Part shown: positions 1,963 to 52,377 of the stretch, piece by piece
Layout: each line of letters opens with the position of its first letter
Numbering within the stretch: position 1 is the first letter of the stretch
Notes under the pieces: model-generated
Seen by the model: the letters and a program-made list of their open reading frames with translations, nothing else
What the model was told of the DNA's origin: nothing
The model's database searches: none
Assembly: GCA_024407725.1 (NCBI GenBank)
Contig: JAKSVZ010000002.1
Location: forward strand, 7,403 to 71,402
Reading direction: 5' to 3'
Origin: Opitutales bacterium
GTDB lineage: Bacteria; Verrucomicrobiota; Verrucomicrobiia; Opitutales; UBA9783
DNA: 64,000 nucleotides
Made by a program: the position numbers and the translations under genes

Positions 1963-4449
1963 ATGAAACAGCTGGTAATTGCTGAAAAACCAAGCGTTGC
2001 GAAAGATTTAGCGAAAGCGCTAGGGGGATTTAAGACTAATAAAGCCGGATATTTTGAGCGGGATGATATGATTTTATCTTCCGCCTTAGGACATTTGGTA
2101 GAGTTGTATTTACCCGGAGACATTGATAAAAAATATAAATTTTGGACACTCAAAAATTTGCCCATTTTACCGGAAAAATTTCAACTAAAGCCCATTGAAA
2201 AAAGCGCTGAGCGTTTCCATTTTTTAAAAAAGCTGATGGAGCGTTCGGATGTATCAGGGTTAATCAATGCCTGTGATGCCGGTCGCGAAGGGGAATTGAT
2301 TTTTGCGTATCTATGTGAATTGGCGAATTGTAAAAAACCCACGCAACGGTTATGGCTTTCATCCATGACGCCTGATGCCATCCGCGATGCCTTTGATCAT
2401 CTACGAAGCGCCGAAAGTATGCAGTCGTTAGAAGCTGCCGCCCGTTGCCGTTCTGAAGCGGATTGGTTGGTAGGAATCAATGGAACGCGTGCGGTTACCG
2501 GACGTATGATGGGGAATCGCTCAAAAGATGTTGCGAGCGTCGGTCGAGTGCAAACTCCTACCTTGGCACTGATTTGCGAACGCGAACAAGAAATTCGCGA
2601 CTTCAAACCCACTCCTTTTTGGACCCTAGAAGGAACGTTTAAGTTGCACTCAGGTACTTATACGGGTTGGCTTCAGCGCCCAAACTTTAAAAAGCAACAG
2701 GAAGCAGATCGCAGTGACCGTTTTTGGAAGGAATCGGAAACGCAAGCCTTAATAACCCAACTTAATAGCCTTAAGCCAACGGATTGGGTGGTTCAGGACA
2801 GCCAAAAACTATCCAAAACAGCTGCTCCGCGTTTGTTTGACTTAACCTCCTTGCAACGTACCTGCAACCAACGCTTTGGGTATTCGGCAAAATTTACGTT
2901 GGATATGGCGCAAAGTTTGTATGAAAAGCATAAAGCGCTCACATACCCCCGTACCGATTCGCGTGCCTTGCCTGAAGATTATGGACCAACCTGTATTAAC
3001 ATCCTTAAAAAATTAAGCGGGGCTTATGCACCTTTAGCAACTAAGGTGATTGAACATCATTGGGTCAATCCTCAGTCGAAAATCATTTTTAATAACAAAG
3101 CAATTTCAGACCACTTTGCTATTATTCCAACCGAAATTGCTCCCAAGGAGCTCAAGGAAAGCGAACGAAAGGTATACGATTGCGTTGTACGACGCTTTAT
3201 TGCTGCCTTTTTTCCACCTGCTGAATTTTCAACCACTACACGCTTAACCACTCAGGCTGAGTTAACCTTTAAAACAGAAGGGAAGATACTCGTTCAACCG
3301 GGGTGGTTAGAAGTAACCGGAAAGCCAGAATCAAAAGAAGAACTGCCTGCCTTAACCCCTGACGATCAGGAGCATGCAACCAGCGAGGCTTTTCAGGTTC
3401 AAGCAGACGAAACGCATCCACCCGCTCGCTTCACCGAAGCGACCTTGTTAACCAGCATGGAGCACGCAGGTCAACAAGTGGAAGATGCGGAATGGGCTGA
3501 AGCCATGAAAGAACGTGGATTAGGAACTCCTGCCACACGCGCTCAAATCATTGAGAATTTAATCGGAGTTCATTATCTCGAACGGGTTGAAAAGCATCTA
3601 TGTCCTACGCCTAAAGCTGAACAGCTATTAGCGTTTTTAAACCTAACGCAGGTGCAAGACTTAGCAAGTCCAACCCTTACGGGCGAATGGGAGTATCGGT
3701 TAAATCAGATCCAAGATGGATCTCTGAATCGTGAACAATTCATGGAAGATATAAAGACGATGACAAAGCAGCTCGTGGAAAAGATTACCACGTTCCAAGA
3801 CTATCAAAACACGCTAAAGGTGCTAGCTCCAACCGACGGGAAACCAATGATTGAAACCTTTCGGTCGTATCAATCCCAAGATGGCACCTTGGTGATTTAC
3901 AAAACCATCGGTAACCGCAAGTTATCGCTTGAAGAGCTCGGTACGCTGATCAACCAAAAGCGGATTGGACCCCTGACCGGCTTTACCTCTAAATTAGGCA
4001 AGCTTTATACGGCTTCGCTTGTTTTAGGCGATGATTATAAGGTGAAGTTTGAGTTTGAATCCAAAACCGAATCAGCTCCAATCGATTTAAGCCTATGCGA
4101 ATGGATCGGAACCTGCCCCCTCTGCGGAGCTAAGGTTTATGTGAATGACCAATCCTTGGTATGTGAACATTTTTTGGAAAAAACCTGCGGATTGCGCATC
4201 AAACGCACGATTTTGGACTATACCTTATCGAACGATCAGTTGGTATACTTGTTAAAAAATGGTAAAACAGAGCTGATTACTCGCTTTAAATCAAAACGAA
4301 CTGGAAAGTTTTTCTCAGCCTATTTGGTGCTCAACAAAAACGGTTCTCTCAGCTTTGAATTTGAGTCCAAAGCCACCAAGGCTACCGATGAAAAGCAGCC
4401 GAAAAAGGCGAAAAAAGCGAAAGCTAAAACAAAAACAAAATCAGCTTAA
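1963..4449 (+). CDS. topB: Type IA DNA topoisomerase, topoisomerase III-like, with C-terminal zinc-ribbon/repeat modules and a Lys-rich tail
   Basis: MKQLVIAEKPSVAKDLAKALGG is a Toprim N-terminus of the TopB type, so the start was moved to the ATG at 1963. A C-terminal module is duplicated (...YTASLVLGDDYKVKFEFES / ...FSAYLVLNKNGSLSFEFES). CPLCG / C..C cysteines are present. The tail reads KQPKKAKKAKAKTKTKSA. Confidence 0.85.
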   Translation: MKQLVIAEKPSVAKDLAKALGGFKTNKAGYFERDDMILSSALGHLVELYLPGDIDKKYKFWTLKNLPILPEKFQLKPIEKSAERFHFLKKLMERSDVSGLINACDAGREGELIFAYLCELANCKKPTQRLWLSSMTPDAIRDAFDHLRSAESMQSLEAAARCRSEADWLVGINGTRAVTGRMMGNRSKDVASVGRVQTPTLALICEREQEIRDFKPTPFWTLEGTFKLHSGTYTGWLQRPNFKKQQEADRSDRFWKESETQALITQLNSLKPTDWVVQDSQKLSKTAAPRLFDLTSLQRTCNQRFGYSAKFTLDMAQSLYEKHKALTYPRTDSRALPEDYGPTCINILKKLSGAYAPLATKVIEHHWVNPQSKIIFNNKAISDHFAIIPTEIAPKELKESERKVYDCVVRRFIAAFFPPAEFSTTTRLTTQAELTFKTEGKILVQPGWLEVTGKPESKEELPALTPDDQEHATSEAFQVQADETHPPARFTEATLLTSMEHAGQQVEDAEWAEAMKERGLGTPATRAQIIENLIGVHYLERVEKHLCPTPKAEQLLAFLNLTQVQDLASPTLTGEWEYRLNQIQDGSLNREQFMEDIKTMTKQLVEKITTFQDYQNTLKVLAPTDGKPMIETFRSYQSQDGTLVIYKTIGNRKLSLEELGTLINQKRIGPLTGFTSKLGKLYTASLVLGDDYKVKFEFESKTESAPIDLSLCEWIGTCPLCGAKVYVNDQSLVCEHFLEKTCGLRIKRTILDYTLSNDQLVYLLKNGKTELITRFKSKRTGKFFSAYLVLNKNGSLSFEFESKATKATDEKQPKKAKKAKAKTKTKSA

Positions 4450-5472
4450 CGCGGTTTTGATGATTTCCCAATAACGGCGCACTCTCCACGAATAATGGGG
4501 CTGGAAGAACGTACAATCTCCGCCTTCATAATTTACCAAACCGGTTGACATACAATCTTTGCAAAAATCAACCTTTTGATGCCATAATGGTAGATTTTCT
4601 TTCGTAACATCAAAAACGCTTCCAATGGGTTCTTGAATATTACAACAGGCTATAATTTCTCCCTTTGCGTTCATAGCCAATTGATGATCAAACCAATAAC
4701 AGGTTTTAGATGGTTTAAAGCATTTTGCATTTAATCCCATCAAAAGATCTTCAACGAGGCATTTTAAATATTCTTGTGGTAAAGTATTTTTAATATATTG
4801 CATCCAGATTTTAAAATCTAATGGAATTGCGTAATAAGGGATAAGCATAACGTTCAACGATTTTGCAAATTCGTAGGCCGCTGGAATTTCATGAATATTG
4901 AACTGATACACATGAAAACGAATCATAATTCGTCCGATACATCCTCGTTGTCTCAACGTGCGGACCAATGTACGAATATTGTTTTTGATGTGTTCGAAAT
5001 CAAAACGATGAATCCGATCGTAGGATGCCTGGCTAAAACCACACATGGAAATGAACATAGACATAATTGGGCTTGCATCAAAGGTGCTGGGCAACGATGG
5101 CAAAACATTCGCATTAGTGCTTAAATCCAACAAACATTGCTCTTCGTTTGCGATTTCAACAATTTTTGCAAACTCCGGGTGCAGTAGCGGTTCATACCAA
5201 ATATATAAAATTAATTCACTACCAACCGTTAAAAAACCTTTTGCCTTTAAATCCTTAATAATCCTTCGGAAAAGCTCTACATCCATGAATCGATTACCTT
5301 CGCAGACAACAGGCGCATGGTTACGGTTCGCCATTCCCGTTGGGCAAAAATAACATTGAGCGTTACATACCTGACTAATATCCATCAACACCTGATTCTT
5401 TGCTGAATCGGGTAGTTTGCGGTACGCATTAATGCGTTTAATCGTCGATAGGGTTTTTAGGATCTGGGGCAT
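4441..5472 (-). CDS. Radical SAM enzyme with a C-terminal Cys-rich (SPASM/twitch-like) domain, paralog A
   Basis: 343 aa with an ATG start. Has the CX3CX2C motif CNAQCYFC, then YEPLLHPEF. The C-terminal cysteines read ...GEIIACCNIQEPIG...FCKDCMSTG...C. Its 3' end overlaps the topB 3' end by 9 nt (convergent). Confidence 0.8.
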   Translation of the reverse strand: MPQILKTLSTIKRINAYRKLPDSAKNQVLMDISQVCNAQCYFCPTGMANRNHAPVVCEGNRFMDVELFRRIIKDLKAKGFLTVGSELILYIWYEPLLHPEFAKIVEIANEEQCLLDLSTNANVLPSLPSTFDASPIMSMFISMCGFSQASYDRIHRFDFEHIKNNIRTLVRTLRQRGCIGRIMIRFHVYQFNIHEIPAAYEFAKSLNVMLIPYYAIPLDFKIWMQYIKNTLPQEYLKCLVEDLLMGLNAKCFKPSKTCYWFDHQLAMNAKGEIIACCNIQEPIGSVFDVTKENLPLWHQKVDFCKDCMSTGLVNYEGGDCTFFQPHYSWRVRRYWEIIKTALS

Positions 5473-5512
5473 TTTTTAAAATGATATTAACATTATCGTT
5501 TGTATGTAAATT

Positions 5513-6571
5513 TTACAAAAAGTATGATAAAGATGGTAAATCGAATTCATCGTTGTCTTCACACTGTATACGCGGGACACCTGCTGCCTTGCAGGTTTTA
5601 CAGAATTCAGACGTAGCATAATATGCCTGCAAGCTTTCTGGGGTCATGTTAAATAAACTGCCTATAGGTTTTGGGAACATAACACAAACATTTAAATCCC
5701 CATCCGGATTAATACAGATGTCCGTAAAGGAACATGTATTTACCGGTCCTCTTGGATGGCTACCATGAAACAAATACTGAGACATTAGTGTTAGATAATC
5801 TACAGGTAACTCTCGATTGTGGTATTTTAAAGCTCGTTCTCCATCCACAAGAAAAGCCCATACGGGCCAAAATCCTATATGTAACGAGCGTGCAAATTCG
5901 GCTGCAGCTTTAATTTCATGTGTGTTAAATTGATAAACATGAAATATTAATGTAAAATATCCTATACAACCATGTGCACGAAATTCATGAACTACTGATG
6001 CAATATTTTTCTTACACTGTTCAAAATCACTCATAAAAATCTTATCGTAAGATTTTTGACTAAACCCACACATGCTCAGTCTAAAGAAGGAAACACAAGA
6101 TGCATCAAATTTATCAGAAAATTTAGGTAAGAAAATTCCATTAGTAGATAAAGAAATGTGACGTTTTTTACGAGTTATGTAATCCATAAACCGTTCGAAT
6201 TCCGGGTGCAGCATAGGTTCGCCCCAGTTATACAAAGCAACCATCTGGTTGTTGTTTGTATGCAAAAAATGCTGTTTTTCTAGGTAATCCAGGATTTTTT
6301 TAAAAAGTTCAAAATCCATAAAATGACCTTTTTCAGTCGGAGCACACCCGTTGCGATTTTTATTTCCGGTTGAACAAAATATACACTTAGAATTACATAC
6401 GTTGCCTATATCTATATAAAATCCTGTCTCTTTCAGGCATTGTCGATAAGACAAAACGCGTTTTAATGCTTCAAGTTTATTAGGGATAAACTTTGATGTG
6501 CTAATTGTTTTAAGAATCTCCCAGCGTTGAGCTAATTTCAAACATTGATCAATTCGAAATAACTTATTCAT
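5513..6571 (-). CDS. Radical SAM enzyme with a C-terminal Cys-rich (SPASM/twitch-like) domain, paralog B
   Basis: 352 aa. Has CNSKCIFC (CX3CX2C) and YNWGEPMLHPEF. CSFTDICINPDGDLNVC fits C-x10-G-x4-C and is followed by CKTC...C. Roughly 60% aa identity to paralog C by eye. Confidence 0.8.
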   Translation of the reverse strand: MNKLFRIDQCLKLAQRWEILKTISTSKFIPNKLEALKRVLSYRQCLKETGFYIDIGNVCNSKCIFCSTGNKNRNGCAPTEKGHFMDFELFKKILDYLEKQHFLHTNNNQMVALYNWGEPMLHPEFERFMDYITRKKRHISLSTNGIFLPKFSDKFDASCVSFFRLSMCGFSQKSYDKIFMSDFEQCKKNIASVVHEFRAHGCIGYFTLIFHVYQFNTHEIKAAAEFARSLHIGFWPVWAFLVDGERALKYHNRELPVDYLTLMSQYLFHGSHPRGPVNTCSFTDICINPDGDLNVCVMFPKPIGSLFNMTPESLQAYYATSEFCKTCKAAGVPRIQCEDNDEFDLPSLSYFL

Positions 6572-6769
6572 ATTATCCTAAACGTAACCTATTGTTTTTG
6601 TAAGTACAACTTATTTTATCAGCCATTGGTTTCTTAAAAAGAAAGATTCTGATATACTAAATTATAATTATAAATTTATGCTAGGTATTACCCAAACCCC
6701 GTTATTCAGCCTTTTAGGGCAAAAAATAGCGGAAGATCCGTTTCGGCTGATCAGTGCGGTTATTTTCTT
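6561..6769. repeat. Copy 1 of a 209-nt perfect direct repeat (partner at 7994-8202)
   Basis: Compared base by base: 6561-6769 is identical to 7994-8202 (offset 1433). It covers the first codons of the rSAM gene (minus strand), the whole divergent intergenic region and the first 30 codons plus 2 nt of the plus-strand membrane protein gene. Confidence 0.95.
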
Positions 6770-6812
6770 GTGTGCTATTTTACATATCTGTGCGACATTT
6801 ATCCGCACTTGA
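6678..6812 (+). pseudogene. Truncated 5' copy of the 8111-9463 membrane protein gene (44 codons plus stop)
   Basis: Reads MLGITQTPLFSLLGQKIAEDPFRLISAVIFLCAILH, identical to the first 36 aa of the 8111 ORF. It then diverges (ICATFIRT*) at the duplication junction. Too short for the ORF track. Confidence 0.8.
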
Positions 6813-6882
6813 TCATTTGCTGATTCGGGCAGTTTCCGATAAGCCTAGATGTGTTTAATAATTGATAAGATTTTTTAAGATC
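6793..6882 (-). pseudogene. Decayed 5' fragment of a radical-SAM gene related to paralog A
   Basis: 6808-6882 aligns by eye to 5391-5464, the codon ~4-27 region of paralog A, at about 75% nt identity. The start codon is lost (gatcttacttgt versus gatctggggcat) and the frame contains stops. Boundaries are approximate. Confidence 0.65.
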
Positions 6883-6942
6883 TTACTTGTGAGTAAATAA
6901 ATGAAATTGTTTTATGATCCACTTTATCTCAATTACAATCAT

Positions 6943-8004
6943 TTATAAATAATACTTCAAAGCACGTAAATCGAATTCGTCGTCATCTTCGCACAATAAA
7001 CGCGGAAACCCTGCAGCTTTGCATTCTGTGCAAAACGGATAAGAATCACACAACGCTTTCCAGGAATCAGGTGTCATATCAAAAATGCTACCCATAGACT
7101 CTCGAAACATACAACATCGATGTACTCCTCCTCGTGGATTAATACAGAGTTGTGCAAAATGACATGTGTTAACGGGACCACGTTTATGGCCTCCATAAAA
7201 CAAGTATTGAAACATTTTACTCAAATATTCTGTTGGTAATTCTCCTTTTAAAAACTGCATGCCTCGCTTTCCATCCACTTGATATGCCCAAACTGGCCAA
7301 AAATCTATATGTAGCGATCGTGCAAATTCAGCCGCTGCTTGAATTTCATGTGTATTAAATTGATAAACACAAAAAATCAAACCAAAACCCCCAATATATC
7401 CATGATGTGCACGAAGATTTTTAACAAGCGTTGCAATATTGCGTTTACATTGTTCAAAATCCGCCATGAAAATTTTATCGTATGAAGCCTGACTAAAGCC
7501 ACACATTGTGAATCTAATAAAACGAATAGAAGATGCATTAACATTTGCCGAAAATTTAGGAAGATAGATTCCATTGGTGGATAACACAATTTTTCGTTTC
7601 TCTTGCGTTAAATAATCAATAATACGCTCGAATTCCGGATGAAGTAAGGGTTCTCCCCAGTTATACAAAGAAATTCGTTGATCTTTTGGGGTATGTATAA
7701 AACCCACTTCTTTAAGATGAGTCCAAACCTGTTTAAAAAATTCAAAGTTCATAAAGCTGCCTCTTTCTTCAGAGGAGCATCCGTTGCGATTTTTAATGCC
7801 GGTCGAACAAAATAAACATTTCGAATTACACACGTCTCCGATATCAAGGAATATATTATCTACATCCATCTCATGCCGATAACATACTAACTGCTTGATA
7901 GCCTTTAGTTTATTTGGCACAAATTTTGAAGTACTGATCGTTTTTAAAATTTCTAAAGCTTGATATAGTTTTAGGTGCCTACGCAACCGAAACAACTTAT
8001 TCAT
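6943..8004 (-). CDS. Radical SAM enzyme with a C-terminal Cys-rich (SPASM/twitch-like) domain, paralog C
   Basis: 353 aa. Has CNSKCLFC and YNWGEPLLHPEF. C-terminal cysteines read CHFAQLCINPRGGVHRCC...CTECKAAG...C. Shares the acidic tail CEDDDEFDL with paralog B. Confidence 0.8.
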   Translation of the reverse strand: MNKLFRLRRHLKLYQALEILKTISTSKFVPNKLKAIKQLVCYRHEMDVDNIFLDIGDVCNSKCLFCSTGIKNRNGCSSEERGSFMNFEFFKQVWTHLKEVGFIHTPKDQRISLYNWGEPLLHPEFERIIDYLTQEKRKIVLSTNGIYLPKFSANVNASSIRFIRFTMCGFSQASYDKIFMADFEQCKRNIATLVKNLRAHHGYIGGFGLIFCVYQFNTHEIQAAAEFARSLHIDFWPVWAYQVDGKRGMQFLKGELPTEYLSKMFQYLFYGGHKRGPVNTCHFAQLCINPRGGVHRCCMFRESMGSIFDMTPDSWKALCDSYPFCTECKAAGFPRLLCEDDDEFDLRALKYYL

Positions 8005-24916: not shown

Positions 24917-25183
24917 TTAATGACGTAACTTTAATTGCTCTACAACCGTTTTATAGGCTTCTGGATTCTTGCGCTCCAAGTATTTTAATAACTTTTTGCG
25001 TTGATTGGACAAAGCCTGCAAGCCGTACAAGGAATGCACGTCTTTTTTATGGGTCTTAAAGTGCTCGGTTAGACCCGAAATCCTATCGGTTAATAAAGCA
25101 ATCTGGACTTGGGATGAACCCGCATCTTTTTCGTGTGTCTGAAACTTCTTAATAATATCTTGTTTTGCCGCTTTTATAGACAT
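24917..25183 (-). CDS. rpsO: 30S ribosomal protein S15
   Basis: MSIKAAKQDIIKKFQTHEKDAGSSQVQIALLTDRISGLTEHFKTHKKDVHS...; 88 aa from the ATG at 25183. The longer track ORF adds an implausible N-terminus. Confidence 0.9.
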   Translation of the reverse strand: MSIKAAKQDIIKKFQTHEKDAGSSQVQIALLTDRISGLTEHFKTHKKDVHSLYGLQALSNQRKKLLKYLERKNPEAYKTVVEQLKLRH

Positions 25184-25292
25184 GTCTTTTTTCTCTCTTA
25201 ATACATTTTTATAAAACAAGATTATTTTTGGCTTTTCAAGTAAAAACTCCATCAAACAAAAGGTTTGAACTTTAGCAAAAACCTAACAAGAT

Positions 25293-25304
25293 GGGGGGGG
25301 GGGG
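25293..25304 (+). repeat. Homopolymeric G12 tract directly abutting the start codon of an OMP gene
   Basis: Counted directly: atg-gggggggggggg... There are 12 consecutive G at 25293-25304 and the OMP ATG is at 25305. An out-of-frame ATG sits at 25291. Confidence 0.95.
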
Positions 25305-26159
25305 ATGATAAAACGAACTACTCTATTATTAAGTATCTGTATTGCTTTAGGAATACATACCCCCTGTTATGGTCTATACGTCATGGTACGTTCGGGATTT
25401 GGAACCCTAAAGGGAGATCCTATCTCGTTTGAGTATGAGGATCCAGATTTTCCTGACCCAGGAGTTATACAGTATAACTTGTATGATTACACAGATAACG
25501 CTTTCATTTACAAAGATCACAAAAACTTATCGGTGGCTTTAGGCGGACGCTTAGATGTGTTTGATATCGGCGCTTTAGGGCTGGAAGTTGAAATCCTAGG
25601 TGCTTATGCCAATTTAGATGCAAACAGGGGAAAGAGTGATTGGGGAGGAGATGATAGAAATGCAATATGGCAAAACATACCCGATCCTGATTTTTTTGTG
25701 GAAATCTATCGGAAGGTTCTTCCCTATAATCACAATCATTACTATGTATCCATGCGATTGCTCTACCTAAAAAATCAACGCATTGCTGGAACACAAGTAA
25801 ACGTCTATTGGGAACAGTATCTATTGGATTGGTTATCCGCTGGTATCGGTTGCGGGCTTGGCGGCGCTTATGTTTGCACCAAATTTACGACGTTGGAATG
25901 GGGTGAAATCGTAAATGATCGCGATGACTGGCAGGGTAATACGGAACTAAGCAGCCGCCGTAAGTACGTCCATTCCGGATCATTGCTGTACAACTTTAGC
26001 CTCTTTGTACGCGCAGAGAAATTTGAAACCTTATTCGAAGTCGGTTACCGCCATATCGGTTTACATCAGATGTGGAATAAATGCTATGGATATACAATCC
26101 CGAAGTTGGCTAACATGCATTCCGACCAAGTATACATTGGCGTAGGACGGACGTTCTAA
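25305..26159 (+). CDS. Outer-membrane beta-barrel protein, family 1 paralog 1
   Basis: 284 aa. Signal peptide MIKRTTLLLSICIALGIHTPCYG. Has alternating beta-strand-like segments and a C-terminal ...VYIGVGRTF. Paralog of 29428-30288. Confidence 0.75.
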   Translation: MIKRTTLLLSICIALGIHTPCYGLYVMVRSGFGTLKGDPISFEYEDPDFPDPGVIQYNLYDYTDNAFIYKDHKNLSVALGGRLDVFDIGALGLEVEILGAYANLDANRGKSDWGGDDRNAIWQNIPDPDFFVEIYRKVLPYNHNHYYVSMRLLYLKNQRIAGTQVNVYWEQYLLDWLSAGIGCGLGGAYVCTKFTTLEWGEIVNDRDDWQGNTELSSRRKYVHSGSLLYNFSLFVRAEKFETLFEVGYRHIGLHQMWNKCYGYTIPKLANMHSDQVYIGVGRTF

Positions 26160-29367: not shown

Positions 29368-29396
29368 TTGCGATTTCTGGAATTATCGAATATAAT
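29368..29396 (+). promoter_or_regulatory. Sigma70-like promoter of the OMP gene at 29428
   Basis: TTGCGA (29368-29373), an exact 17-nt spacer, then TATAAT (29391-29396). It lies 32 nt upstream of the ATG. Confidence 0.55.
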
Positions 29397-29427
29397 TCTT
29401 TTAAGGTTTCCCCAGAAAGAACATAAC

Positions 29428-30288
29428 ATGATTCACAGATGGATGGTTTTAGGCACCTTAAGCCTAGGGCTAATAATGTGTGTACCTTGCCATGGATATG
29501 TCATGGTACGCGGAGGATTTGGAGATTTACACAGTGATGATACCGGAAGTTTCGAAAAAACAAACGGCGCTGTCGATAATCCTCCACCCGATGGACAGGA
29601 AATACATGGAATTTGCCGCCAAAATCAATGTACAACCGGATCATTTCATTACAGCAGTAAAAACCTATCCGTTGCATTAGGCCGTCGCTTCGATATATTT
29701 GCCTTCGGAGCATTAGGATTAGAATTAGAAATCTTAGGCACTTACGCCAAGTTAAAAGACCCAACACGAACACTCACAAATCAATTGGGAAATATGATCG
29801 CTATACCTATGCCGGATATGTATGGCGTCATTGCTAAACGAATTCGGGAACCCGGCAATCCTAATCCTGCCACGCTCTTGAATCCACGTTTTTTATACCT
29901 CAAAAACCAATATGTTGCCGGAGCTCAGGTCAACGTGTATTGGGAACAGTATCTATTGGATTGGTTATCGGCTGGTATCGGAGGAGGTATTGGCGGTGCT
30001 TACGTCAGCACACGCTTTAGCACCTTGGAATTTTATGTAAGAGGAATTGGAGCTGGTGCCCCTTTTGCTACCCCCGCGACCAATCACTCAAAGTACGTCC
30101 ATTCCGGCTCATTGTTGTATAACTTTAGCCTCTTTGTACGCGCAGAAAAATTTGAGACGCTATTCGAGGTTGGTTACCGCCATATCGGTTTGCATCAGAT
30201 GTGGAATAAATGCTATGGATATACAATCCCAAAGTTGGCTAACATGCATTCCGACCAAGTATACATTGGTGTAGGAAGAACGTTCTAA
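29428..30288 (+). CDS. Outer-membrane beta-barrel protein, family 1 paralog 2
   Basis: The ATG at 29428 gives MIHRWMVLGTLSLGLIMCVPCHG. The last 65 aa are identical to those of the 25305 paralog. Confidence 0.75.
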   Translation: MIHRWMVLGTLSLGLIMCVPCHGYVMVRGGFGDLHSDDTGSFEKTNGAVDNPPPDGQEIHGICRQNQCTTGSFHYSSKNLSVALGRRFDIFAFGALGLELEILGTYAKLKDPTRTLTNQLGNMIAIPMPDMYGVIAKRIREPGNPNPATLLNPRFLYLKNQYVAGAQVNVYWEQYLLDWLSAGIGGGIGGAYVSTRFSTLEFYVRGIGAGAPFATPATNHSKYVHSGSLLYNFSLFVRAEKFETLFEVGYRHIGLHQMWNKCYGYTIPKLANMHSDQVYIGVGRTF

Positions 30289-47062: not shown

Positions 47063-47113
47063 GAACTTTATTTATGGAACTTTATTTATGGAACTTTATT
47101 TATGGAACTTTAT
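47063..47113 (+). repeat. 14-bp tandem repeat (gaactttatttatg) x3 plus a 9-nt partial unit, containing the OMP start codon
   Basis: Units at 47063-47076, 47077-47090 and 47091-47104, with a partial unit at 47105-47113. Each unit carries an ATG (47074, 47088, 47102) and only the last opens the long ORF. Confidence 0.95.
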
Positions 47114-47860
47114 AAAAAATTATTGTTTGTAAGTGGGCTGTGTCTAGCAAACTTTTATGCGTTTGCAGATGCGGAGAGCGAATACGATGATTTGGAAGCA
47201 ATTTCTGAGAATAGCTTTTCAGAAGTTGAAGATACAGAGTCTTCCTGTTGGTTAGCGGAGTATCCAACCTACCTCGATCTAAACATAGGACTTGGGTTTG
47301 GCAATAAATTTAACTATGCCAAAAATGCTGAAGAATTGAAATTAACGGGAGGTTCTCCTAAAGCAAAAGTAATAACGGGGCCAATGGGTTTAGAAATAGG
47401 AAAAATCATCAATGAGTGGCGCTTTGGTGTTGAAGCAATATTCATTTATGGAAAGACCGGAAACTTTGAGCTGAAAATAAATGGCAAAGAATATGTAATT
47501 AAAAACACTATATGGGGAGGTAGTTTAATGGGAAACGTTTATTATGATATTCCTTTACACACACATATAGCTTGGTATATGGGAGGTGGCTTGGGTTTTG
47601 ACTATTTAAAAATAAAAATGAAAAAAGAAGAATTGGGGCTCCACGGTAAAAGTTTCTGGGCTCCTGTTTGCCAATTTCGAATAGGCTTAGCTTTTTATTA
47701 CGAAAGTTATATCATGAGTGCTGGCTATCGCATTCGTCATATTTTCCAAAACCTTAAGATCGATAATTCAATAAAATATTATACTGATAAAAAGTTAAAC
47801 AGTGAATGGAAATCTCCAACTATTCATGTTCTTGAATGCGCATTCGCATGGACGTTTTAA
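47102..47860 (+). CDS. Small outer-membrane beta-barrel protein, family 2 paralog a
   Basis: 252 aa. Signal peptide ...LCLANFYAFADA, an acidic N-terminal stretch, Gly/aromatic-rich strand pattern and C-terminal ...CAFAWTF. Confidence 0.75.
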   Translation: MELYKKLLFVSGLCLANFYAFADAESEYDDLEAISENSFSEVEDTESSCWLAEYPTYLDLNIGLGFGNKFNYAKNAEELKLTGGSPKAKVITGPMGLEIGKIINEWRFGVEAIFIYGKTGNFELKINGKEYVIKNTIWGGSLMGNVYYDIPLHTHIAWYMGGGLGFDYLKIKMKKEELGLHGKSFWAPVCQFRIGLAFYYESYIMSAGYRIRHIFQNLKIDNSIKYYTDKKLNSEWKSPTIHVLECAFAWTF

Positions 47861-48051: not shown

Positions 48052-48825
48052 ATGAGATGCTACAAAAAACAACTTTTGGCAATAAGCATTTGTTTAATGA
48101 ATTTTTATGCTTTTGCAGATACAACAGAATACAACGATACAGAAGCGATTTCTGAAGAAAGTATTTCAGAAGTCGATGATACGCCCTCCCGTTTAAGTTG
48201 GTTCATCGATGCTCCAACTTATTTTCAGATGCACGTCGCTCGTGGTCGTGCAAGCGGATTTGAATATTGCAAAAATATTCAAGAAATTAATCCACGATTA
48301 AACTGTAATTCTAAAGTACTAACTGATCTTGATTGGGTCGGAATAGAAGTAGGAAAAGTTTTTGGTAATTGGCGTTTTGGGCTAGAAGGAACGTACTATA
48401 AAGGAGACATGCGGGATGCTTATCTCGATATGGGTCGAGATGAAGCCTACAGAATAGACGCTAAAACGCGGGGATGGGGTATAATAGGTAATGTTTATTA
48501 CACTATTCCACTCACAGCCAATAATGCTTTTCTTTGCATTTTGGGCGTTGGCTTGGGACTTGAGGATCGAAAAATCGAAGCAAACAGCTCCATGCCACTA
48601 AAATTACACGATCATGTCCTTAGAGGATTAGCTTACCAATTGTATGTTGGGCTAGCCTATAACTTTGACGATTATCATGCTTTGAGTATGGGGTATCGCT
48701 TCCATCATTTTACCAAAAATATGGAGTGGAATTCTGCAAGTGAGGGGAATGACCATATAATTTCTCAGTGGGACTCACCAAAGAGTCATATGTTTGAATG
48801 TGCCTTTACCTGTCTGTTTGAATAA
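48052..48825 (+). CDS. Small outer-membrane beta-barrel protein, family 2 paralog b
   Basis: 257 aa. Signal peptide ...ICLMNFYAFADT. Shares an acidic EAISE.S.SEV.DT segment and a ...ECAFTCLFE end with paralog a. Confidence 0.75.
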   Translation: MRCYKKQLLAISICLMNFYAFADTTEYNDTEAISEESISEVDDTPSRLSWFIDAPTYFQMHVARGRASGFEYCKNIQEINPRLNCNSKVLTDLDWVGIEVGKVFGNWRFGLEGTYYKGDMRDAYLDMGRDEAYRIDAKTRGWGIIGNVYYTIPLTANNAFLCILGVGLGLEDRKIEANSSMPLKLHDHVLRGLAYQLYVGLAYNFDDYHALSMGYRFHHFTKNMEWNSASEGNDHIISQWDSPKSHMFECAFTCLFE

Positions 48826-52098: not shown

Positions 52099-52377
52099 AA
52101 CCTCTTAAGCCTTTTCCAGAGCGAGTTTCCTTGGTTTGTTAATAACCCAGTGAATAAATAAGGATAAAAAGGTCAACAAAGGTAAATTGCTCATTTTTGT
52201 TCACCAAAAACCCCTTTCATTCTCAACTTATTCACACTGTAGTATTCAAGTCTACAAGCGGTTTTGTGTCAATTTTTAGCACTTATTCGCCTGTATAATA
52301 AGAATAATAAATAAAACAATTTATTTTCATATAATAAAGCTTTGCAATATCATTCCCAAAATCACTAGATTATACAA

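Follow-up and report, generated by a model that had tools for sequence, protein, structure and literature searches.

In Neisseria, the Opa proteins form a multigene family of 8-stranded barrels with two to three hypervariable loops and a conserved last loop, and the CTCTT repeats that switch them by frameshift lie in the region encoding the signal peptide. In Moraxella catarrhalis, the 5' untranslated region of uspA1 contains a poly(G) tract far from the ATG in a long leader, and a difference of one G shifts expression. In Treponema pallidum, the poly-G tracts in the promoters of outer-membrane protein (OMP) genes (tprE/G/J, tprL, and tp0126) vary in length in vivo and set transcription, with 8 G or fewer being permissive; the tprL tract overlaps the -10 region, with transcription starting 4 nt downstream of the tract (PMC7864442). 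According to the same paper, Neisseria meningitidis porA has poly-G in the -35/-10 spacer and opc has poly-C at the -35, giving graded or on/off expression (PMC7864442). In Akkermansia muciniphila, a member of the Verrucomicrobia, long G/C runs at gene termini have been proposed as slippage switches (PMC3048395). The present study concerns a 64-kb stretch (the window) of a metagenome-assembled genome (MAG) of an uncultured Opitutales bacterium from the horse gut (GCA_024407725.1, contig JAKSVZ010000002.1), in which an uninterrupted run of 12 G (G12) abuts the start codon of a putative surface protein gene, here referred to as OMP1. The best explanation, to which we would give about an even chance, is that G12 is a contingency-type stochastic expression switch or rheostat that acts on initiation, leaving the reading frame of the annotated protein unshifted.

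The tract stands in the context caagATGGGGGGGGGGGGATGATAAAACGA / aacctaacaagATGGGGGGGGGGGGATGATAAAACGAACT, directly before the OMP1 start codon at 25305, and an ATG at 25291-25293 shares its G with the first G of the run. It is thus an uninterrupted G/C run (the class beginning at about 8 nt) in the promoter, leader, or 5' region of a gene, and it is the sole G or C run longer than 7 nt in the window, where the next-longest are two G7 (40795 and 55769) and no C run exceeds 6. Markov models of order 0 to order 5 predict about 5e-5 to 4e-3 runs of 12 or more, with ~0.001 expected in the 64 kb, so G12 is not a chance feature. From the upstream ATG, a mini open reading frame (ORF) can be read whose TGA overlaps the main ATG as ATGA. 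Frame computation brings the upstream ATG in frame with the OMP1 ORF at G10, G13, or G16, and gives an out-of-frame ORF of 46-47 codons spanning the OMP1 start at G11 or G14. An earlier reading of this DNA made from the sequence alone (the sequence-only reading) had placed the tract and both ATGs at these same positions, and its arithmetic, by which gain of one G or loss of two puts the upstream ATG in frame while G12 leads to an early stop, is reproduced by the computation.

The promoter of OMP1 was assigned by positional homology with the promoters of its paralogs, which have a common geometry (Table 1), and should be regarded as putative; its -10-like hexamer, CAAGAT, retains A2 and T6. G12 occupies all 12 nt from this hexamer to the OMP1 ATG. 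If the assignment is right, the tract is the entire -10-to-ATG interval and transcription would begin within it, and the upstream ATG, which overlaps the -10-like hexamer, may not be transcribed. The promoter scan found no hexamer pair bracketing the tract, i.e., not the arrangement of a porA-type spacer switch. The C/A tracts that are typical of the family in this region are interrupted upstream of OMP1. For the second paralog in the window (OMP2, start at 29428), only a C6 was found, upstream of the -35; the contrast that had been drawn between OMP1 and this paralog, with its own recognizable promoter and no long tract, therefore stands.

Start contexts were scored with a position matrix built from the other gene starts. 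ATG 25305 obtained -7.4, a score lower than that of any other gene start in the window and among the bottom 2% of all ATGs, whereas ATG 25291 obtained an ordinary -2.2, with the A-rich context typical of starts in a genome poor in Shine-Dalgarno (SD) motifs. Across the window's 39 gene starts, only a handful are preceded by an SD-like motif. The upstream regions of the window genes are A/T-rich, with G at 16% of positions -12 to -1, and apart from OMP1 the count of G in this interval never exceeds 4. SD-led initiation is hence not the norm in the window, and these starts suggest that initiation in this lineage may be SD-independent.

OMP1 is, judging from its modeled structure, an outer-membrane beta-barrel protein. 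An AlphaFold (AF2) model built with the family alignment as input (predicted local distance difference test, pLDDT, 87; predicted template modeling score, pTM, 0.80) shows a signal helix and, after it, long strands in antiparallel order, and the protein ends in a C-terminal aromatic residue. The significant Foldseek matches of this model are all outer-membrane barrels, namely OpcA, OmpA, OmpT/Pla, FadL, and Legionella Dot/Icm porins; their template modeling (TM) scores are modest (at most 0.52), so that the class is supported at the level of the OMP barrel. The call of an OMP gene, made earlier from the letters only, is thereby borne out by both the barrel model and its exclusively outer-membrane matches. 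In our reading of the topology, eight strands cross the membrane, joined by short turns on the periplasmic side and by four loops on the outside. Across the family alignment, the majority-residue fraction is 0.64-0.89 for strands and turns, 0.38, 0.28, and 0.26 for loops L1, L2, and L3, and 0.74 for L4; the predicted picture is of three hypervariable surface loops (L1-L3) and a conserved fourth. The OMP1 ORF is intact and keeps every residue that is invariant in the 30-member alignment. In all 30 aligned members, translation starts at the position corresponding to 25305, the first residues being M-x-K-R, and no member is extended at its N terminus.

The family to which OMP1 belongs is an undescribed orphan that is specific to gut Opitutales. 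OMP1 has no match in Pfam or NCBIfam, none of the 30 family members is matched by Pfam, and the family profile found nothing among PDB sequences. Among 1.84 billion proteins, the profile matches only 17 cluster representatives (50% identity), and the members were recovered from the gut of horses and from assemblies of the cattle rumen (PRJEB21624, AUXO01, UBA3869). At least 18 paralogs with MJ218 locus tags are present in the same MAG. Between OMP1 (25961-26159) and OMP2 (30090-30288), identity is ~90% over the last ~200 nt and complete over the last 65 residues, whereas the 5' halves share only 45-50% identity; this pattern suggests gene conversion between the two paralogs at the conserved 3' end.

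Repeats of other kinds recur at the 5' ends of family members and of a further OMP-like gene (Table 1). In the same organism, an array of a 9-mer (ATTAGTTTA) directly precedes the GAAGGAAAAA-ATG of the paralog P0048, and the contig ends within the array. In the window, each unit of a perfect array of a 14-mer (GAACTTTATTTATG) contains an ATG, and the array runs into an ORF on the plus strand whose 252-aa product has a signal peptide and weak matches to Surface_Ag_2 and OMP_b-brl; this is a putative second OMP gene with a 5'-end repeat, unrelated to the OMP1 family. The neighboring ORF (48052..48825) also has an OMP_b-brl match. There is thus a surface product together with several repeat-bearing loci, i.e., P0048 and the OMP-like gene at 47102. 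In a sister lineage from the rumen, family genes are preceded by a cassette of C5-9, A6-8, GCTTGCAA, ~17 nt, and 1-6 tandem copies of a 15-mer (CTTATAAGGAAACRC) ending at the ATG, in which the GCTTGCAA position contains a TTGCAA of the -35 type. Repeat number differs between strains at the locus downstream of tsf and at that adjacent to ffh. Flanking sequence at the tsf-downstream locus is 97.4% identical, against only 74.6% for the OMP gene itself. G/C runs of 8 nt or more are otherwise rare, with three in 154 kb of fetched loci: two of the three are at family promoters, and the third is an intragenic G8 (L004, 2971-2978) that codes for PGGG in a methyltransferase-like gene of UBA3869. With G12 at the 5' end of a surface gene, and with 5' repeats across the family whose numbers differ between sister strains, the candidacy of the tract as a contingency locus, as put forward by the sequence-only reading, is reasonable.

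Two observations were made beside these cassettes. One cassette of L014 bears a fragment resembling the 3' end of a tRNA, as is also seen beside L002. Two ENA rumen contigs, L012 and L014, share their gene order on the downstream side of a family gene (sigma-70 ... SRP54) and differ upstream of it (tsf versus ymdB), so a rearrangement breakpoint coincides with the OMP family gene.

Table 1. Features at the OMP1 locus and 5' repeats at related loci. Positions without a contig name are those of the window.
Feature	Location	Strand	Description
G12 homopolymer	25293..25304	+ (C12 on minus strand)	direct reading
OMP1 (MJ218_00650, P0001)	25305..26159	+	284 aa; signal peptide, 8-stranded beta-barrel (model), C-terminal ...GVGRTF
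Mini-ORF from upstream ATG	25291..25308	+	MGGGG* (ATG GGG GGG GGG GGA TGA)
OMP1 promoter, putative, weak, family-type	25264..25292	+	-35 TTTGAA 25264-25269, spacer 17 nt, -10 CAAGAT 25287-25292
Paralog OMP2	29368..30288 (ORF 29428..30288)	+	31-nt leader, no long tract
OMP2 promoter	29368-29396	+	TTGCGA-17-TATAAT
MJ218_01320 promoter	L019		TTGCGA-17-TAAAAT
Sister-lineage promoters			TTGCAA-17/18-AATCTT
rpsO (ribosomal protein S15)	24917..25183	-	divergent; promoter-like TTGAAA at 25239-25234
9-mer array, at least 3.8 copies	L021 1-44 (Logan contig, SRR17543914)		ATTAGTTTA; upstream of MJ218_01355 / P0048
14-mer array, perfect, 3.6 copies	47063-47113	+	GAACTTTATTTATG; overlaps start codon of ORF 47102..47860
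Sister cassettes	L002 2899-3000; L003 2920-3000; L010 3920-4000; L012/L013 9870-10000
Sister cassettes, continued	L012 18645-18775; L014 1290-1344 and 9920-10000
tsf-downstream locus	UBA3869		C6A8, 1 copy of 15-mer
tsf-downstream locus	two ENA assemblies		C7A7, 6 copies of 15-mer
ffh-adjacent locus	L012		6 copies of 15-mer
ffh-adjacent locus	L014		3 copies of 15-mer

Taken together, the observations are indirectly consistent with a contingency locus that acts on initiation. Slipped-strand mispairing would add or remove G, and transcription starting inside the tract would yield an mRNA with only a few G before the AUG. Tract length would then determine how far the AUG lies from the -10 and hence how long the leader is, with ~6-8 G predicted to give a leaderless mRNA, and it would at the same time alter a G-rich start-codon context that is highly atypical for this genome. 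In longer transcripts, if there are any, tract length would set the frame relation of the upstream ATG to the main ATG: with 3n G, the stop of the upstream ORF would overlap the start; with 3n+1, an in-frame MGGGG extension would result; and with 3n+2, an upstream ORF of 46-47 codons would run across the start.

Several points weigh against this explanation. The OMP1 hexamers match only 6 of 12 consensus positions, and a consensus scanner makes no call there. The 64 kb contain a single long G/C tract. At one sister locus, L012 and L013, which come from different samples and are 99.9% identical, have the same repeat numbers, so the repeats are not wildly unstable. No second copy of the G12 tract turned up in the collections searched, so variation in its length and any influence on expression are presumed: when the proteins of OMP1, rpsO (88 and 111 aa), and plsY were looked up by exact match, the only results were catalogue records of coding-sequence length or a 1.3-kb Logan contig that stops at the 3' end of the OMP gene, and scans of genome and metagenome contigs returned sister-lineage paralogs only and no OMP1 locus. 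The nearest relative, L023 (JGI 3300041750, 841-2058), is 90% identical at the nucleotide level over leuS-plsY, with a PlsY that is 93% identical, and is without OMP1 except for a frame-disrupted 3' remnant of ~50 nt, after which an unrelated gene of 280 aa follows. OMP1 could thus be a recent, dispensable, or decaying copy, and the presence of family members varies between strains. In a more distant species (PlsY 68% identical), plsY is found in a different synteny.

An alternative is that G12 is hypermutable and functionless, i.e., that slippage produced it incidentally as the 5' region degenerated in a redundant paralog that is silent or being lost. Besides being missing from the closest relative, OMP1 is without the good promoters of OMP2 and MJ218_01320, has interrupted C/A tracts where the family typically has them, and has an extremely poor start-codon context. 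However, the ORF is intact with all invariant family residues kept, G12 far exceeds what drift would be expected to produce in a genome of 44% GC, and 5' repeats recur in several independent forms, both among family members and at a further OMP gene, as would be expected if selection maintains them. We consider a functionless tract unlikely, although it deserves serious attention.

A classical frameshift switch, in which ATG 25291 is the true start, the tract encodes poly-Gly, G10/G13/G16 are ON, and G12 is OFF, is distinctly improbable. The ATG immediately before the tract, the frame arithmetic, and the start-typical context of ATG 25291 as compared with that of ATG 25305 (the worst of the gene starts) fit such a switch. 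Yet the family-wide start at the equivalent of 25305 (30 of 30 members, none extended) places the tract upstream of the conserved ORF, where changes in its length cannot shift the OMP1 frame and where it is not an intragenic repeat; a classical frameshift switch of the annotated protein is therefore not supported. In addition, ATG 25291 overlaps the homology-placed -10-like hexamer and is perhaps untranscribed, an 'AT' in front of a G run is expected by chance about once in 12-16 cases, and the main ATG would stay available in the OFF state.

The sequence-only reading had also proposed that the G run stands in for an SD sequence, pairing with the anti-SD so that tract length tunes the spacing between SD and AUG. 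GGGGG could pair with CCUCC via one G-U pair, and AAGGAA abuts the ATG at the same place in the sister-lineage paralogs. This surrogate is nevertheless a poor fit to a window in which SD motifs are missing from most of the 39 gene starts, G is depleted before starts, and no gene start has a worse context than ATG 25305, and the 3' end of the 16S rRNA lies outside the window; with these features, the SD idea goes unsupported and is very unlikely to be correct.

Logan contigs of run SRR17543914 contain PlsY and two of the paralogs in identical form; the run is from a study of horse faecal metagenomes (PRJNA438436) that used PCR-free libraries, HiSeq3000 sequencing (2x150), and metaSPAdes (PMC9529974). 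Lastly, a sequencing or assembly artefact, e.g., poly-G dark cycles or a chimeric join, is scarcely credible: although length calls of a 12-nt homopolymer in a short-read MAG are error-prone by plus or minus 1, and the called length may possibly be off by that much, the tract is internal to an 83-kb contig, reads must span it because no assembly k-mer is as short, the flanks on both sides continue family-homologous sequence, and the four-colour chemistry of the HiSeq3000 makes a dark-cycle artefact very unlikely, so that a two-colour poly-G artefact was rejected on the grounds of both platform and k-mers.

Other candidate roles of the tract region were also considered and set aside. The tract lies ~55 nt upstream of the -35 of the divergent rpsO gene, which has its own, nearer promoter-like site, so the tract belongs to OMP1 and a role in rpsO expression was ruled out. 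A minus-strand TTAATA-16-TATCAT within the OMP1 codons was rejected, the count of such sites being within chance expectation. The G run is able to pair with C5 of the conserved TPC codons; a special RNA structure was rejected, as the region folds no better than shuffled sequences (z = 0.2 to 0.7), and an Rfam search of the tract region found nothing.

Elsewhere in the window, three tandem radical-SAM paralogs lie on the minus strand (4441-8004), of which 5513..6571 and 6943..8004 share identical 25-nt upstream regions, indicating recent duplication. The GC skew changes sign near 52 kb, where a 279-nt gap (about 52099-52377) between mnmE/mnmG (-) and folE (+) holds the DnaA-box-like TTATTCACA; together, these make the gap a candidate replication origin.

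If the tract varies and controls expression, the range of slippage-based contingency loci would widen to take in uncultured gut Verrucomicrobia, and an undescribed, fast-evolving OMP family would be flagged as a likely interface with the host or a protist partner. A homopolymer that is the whole -10-to-AUG interval would, moreover, allow leader-length effects to be separated from promoter-spacing effects. If the tract is invariant, it would be an oddity in a redundant paralog. The undescribed family with its diverse 5' repeats is a more interesting object than the tract itself. In the rumen lineage, a gene for a TLC-family ATP/ADP translocase (PF03219; L010, 2319-3851) lies directly upstream of a family member, a hint that these bacteria may live as energy parasites, possibly inside cells or in association with protists. 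On a wider and more speculative scale, an uncultured Opitutales gut clade of the horse hindgut and cattle rumen, including the sister lineage with the ATP/ADP translocase, might run a lineage-specific, Opa-like system of surface variation. In such a system, each paralog would have its own 5' repeat (G12, 9-/14-/15-mer arrays, C/A tracts) between a shared promoter and the ATG, slippage would set leader length and toggle between leaderless and leadered mRNAs to give combinatorial surface phenotypes, and gene conversion at the 3' end would shuffle loops. This scheme is doubtful as a whole, with little probability attached to it.

In comparison with the known systems, the family resembles Opa in being a family of small 8-stranded barrels with hypervariable loops, a conserved last loop, and 5' repeats that differ gene by gene. 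It differs in that there is no sequence homology and that its repeats are upstream of the ORF, while those of Opa are intragenic. Membership in the Opa/opacity family was accordingly rejected: Pfam matches none of the 30 members, no PDB sequence is matched, and no pentamer repeat is present, so the resemblance is one of architecture only. Like uspA1, OMP1 has poly-G upstream of the start of a surface gene, but here the tract touches the ATG. As in porA and opc, an OMP gene carries a homopolymer among its 5' control sequences, although the tract is neither between -35 and -10 nor overlapping the -35. With Akkermansia, OMP1 shares the phylum and the suggestion of homopolymer phase variation, which is likewise a proposal there; the Akkermansia runs differ in being intragenic and in capsule-related genes. 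The promoter poly-G tracts of T. pallidum are the nearest analogue. They belong to another phylum and another protein family, and length variation is known there and presumed for OMP1; the OMP1 tract, in addition, follows the -10-like hexamer and touches the ATG, so that leader length and start context would also change. In both cases, an uncultivable host-associated bacterium has a paralogous OMP family in which a G run of at least 8 lies outside the ORF, in the promoter/start region.

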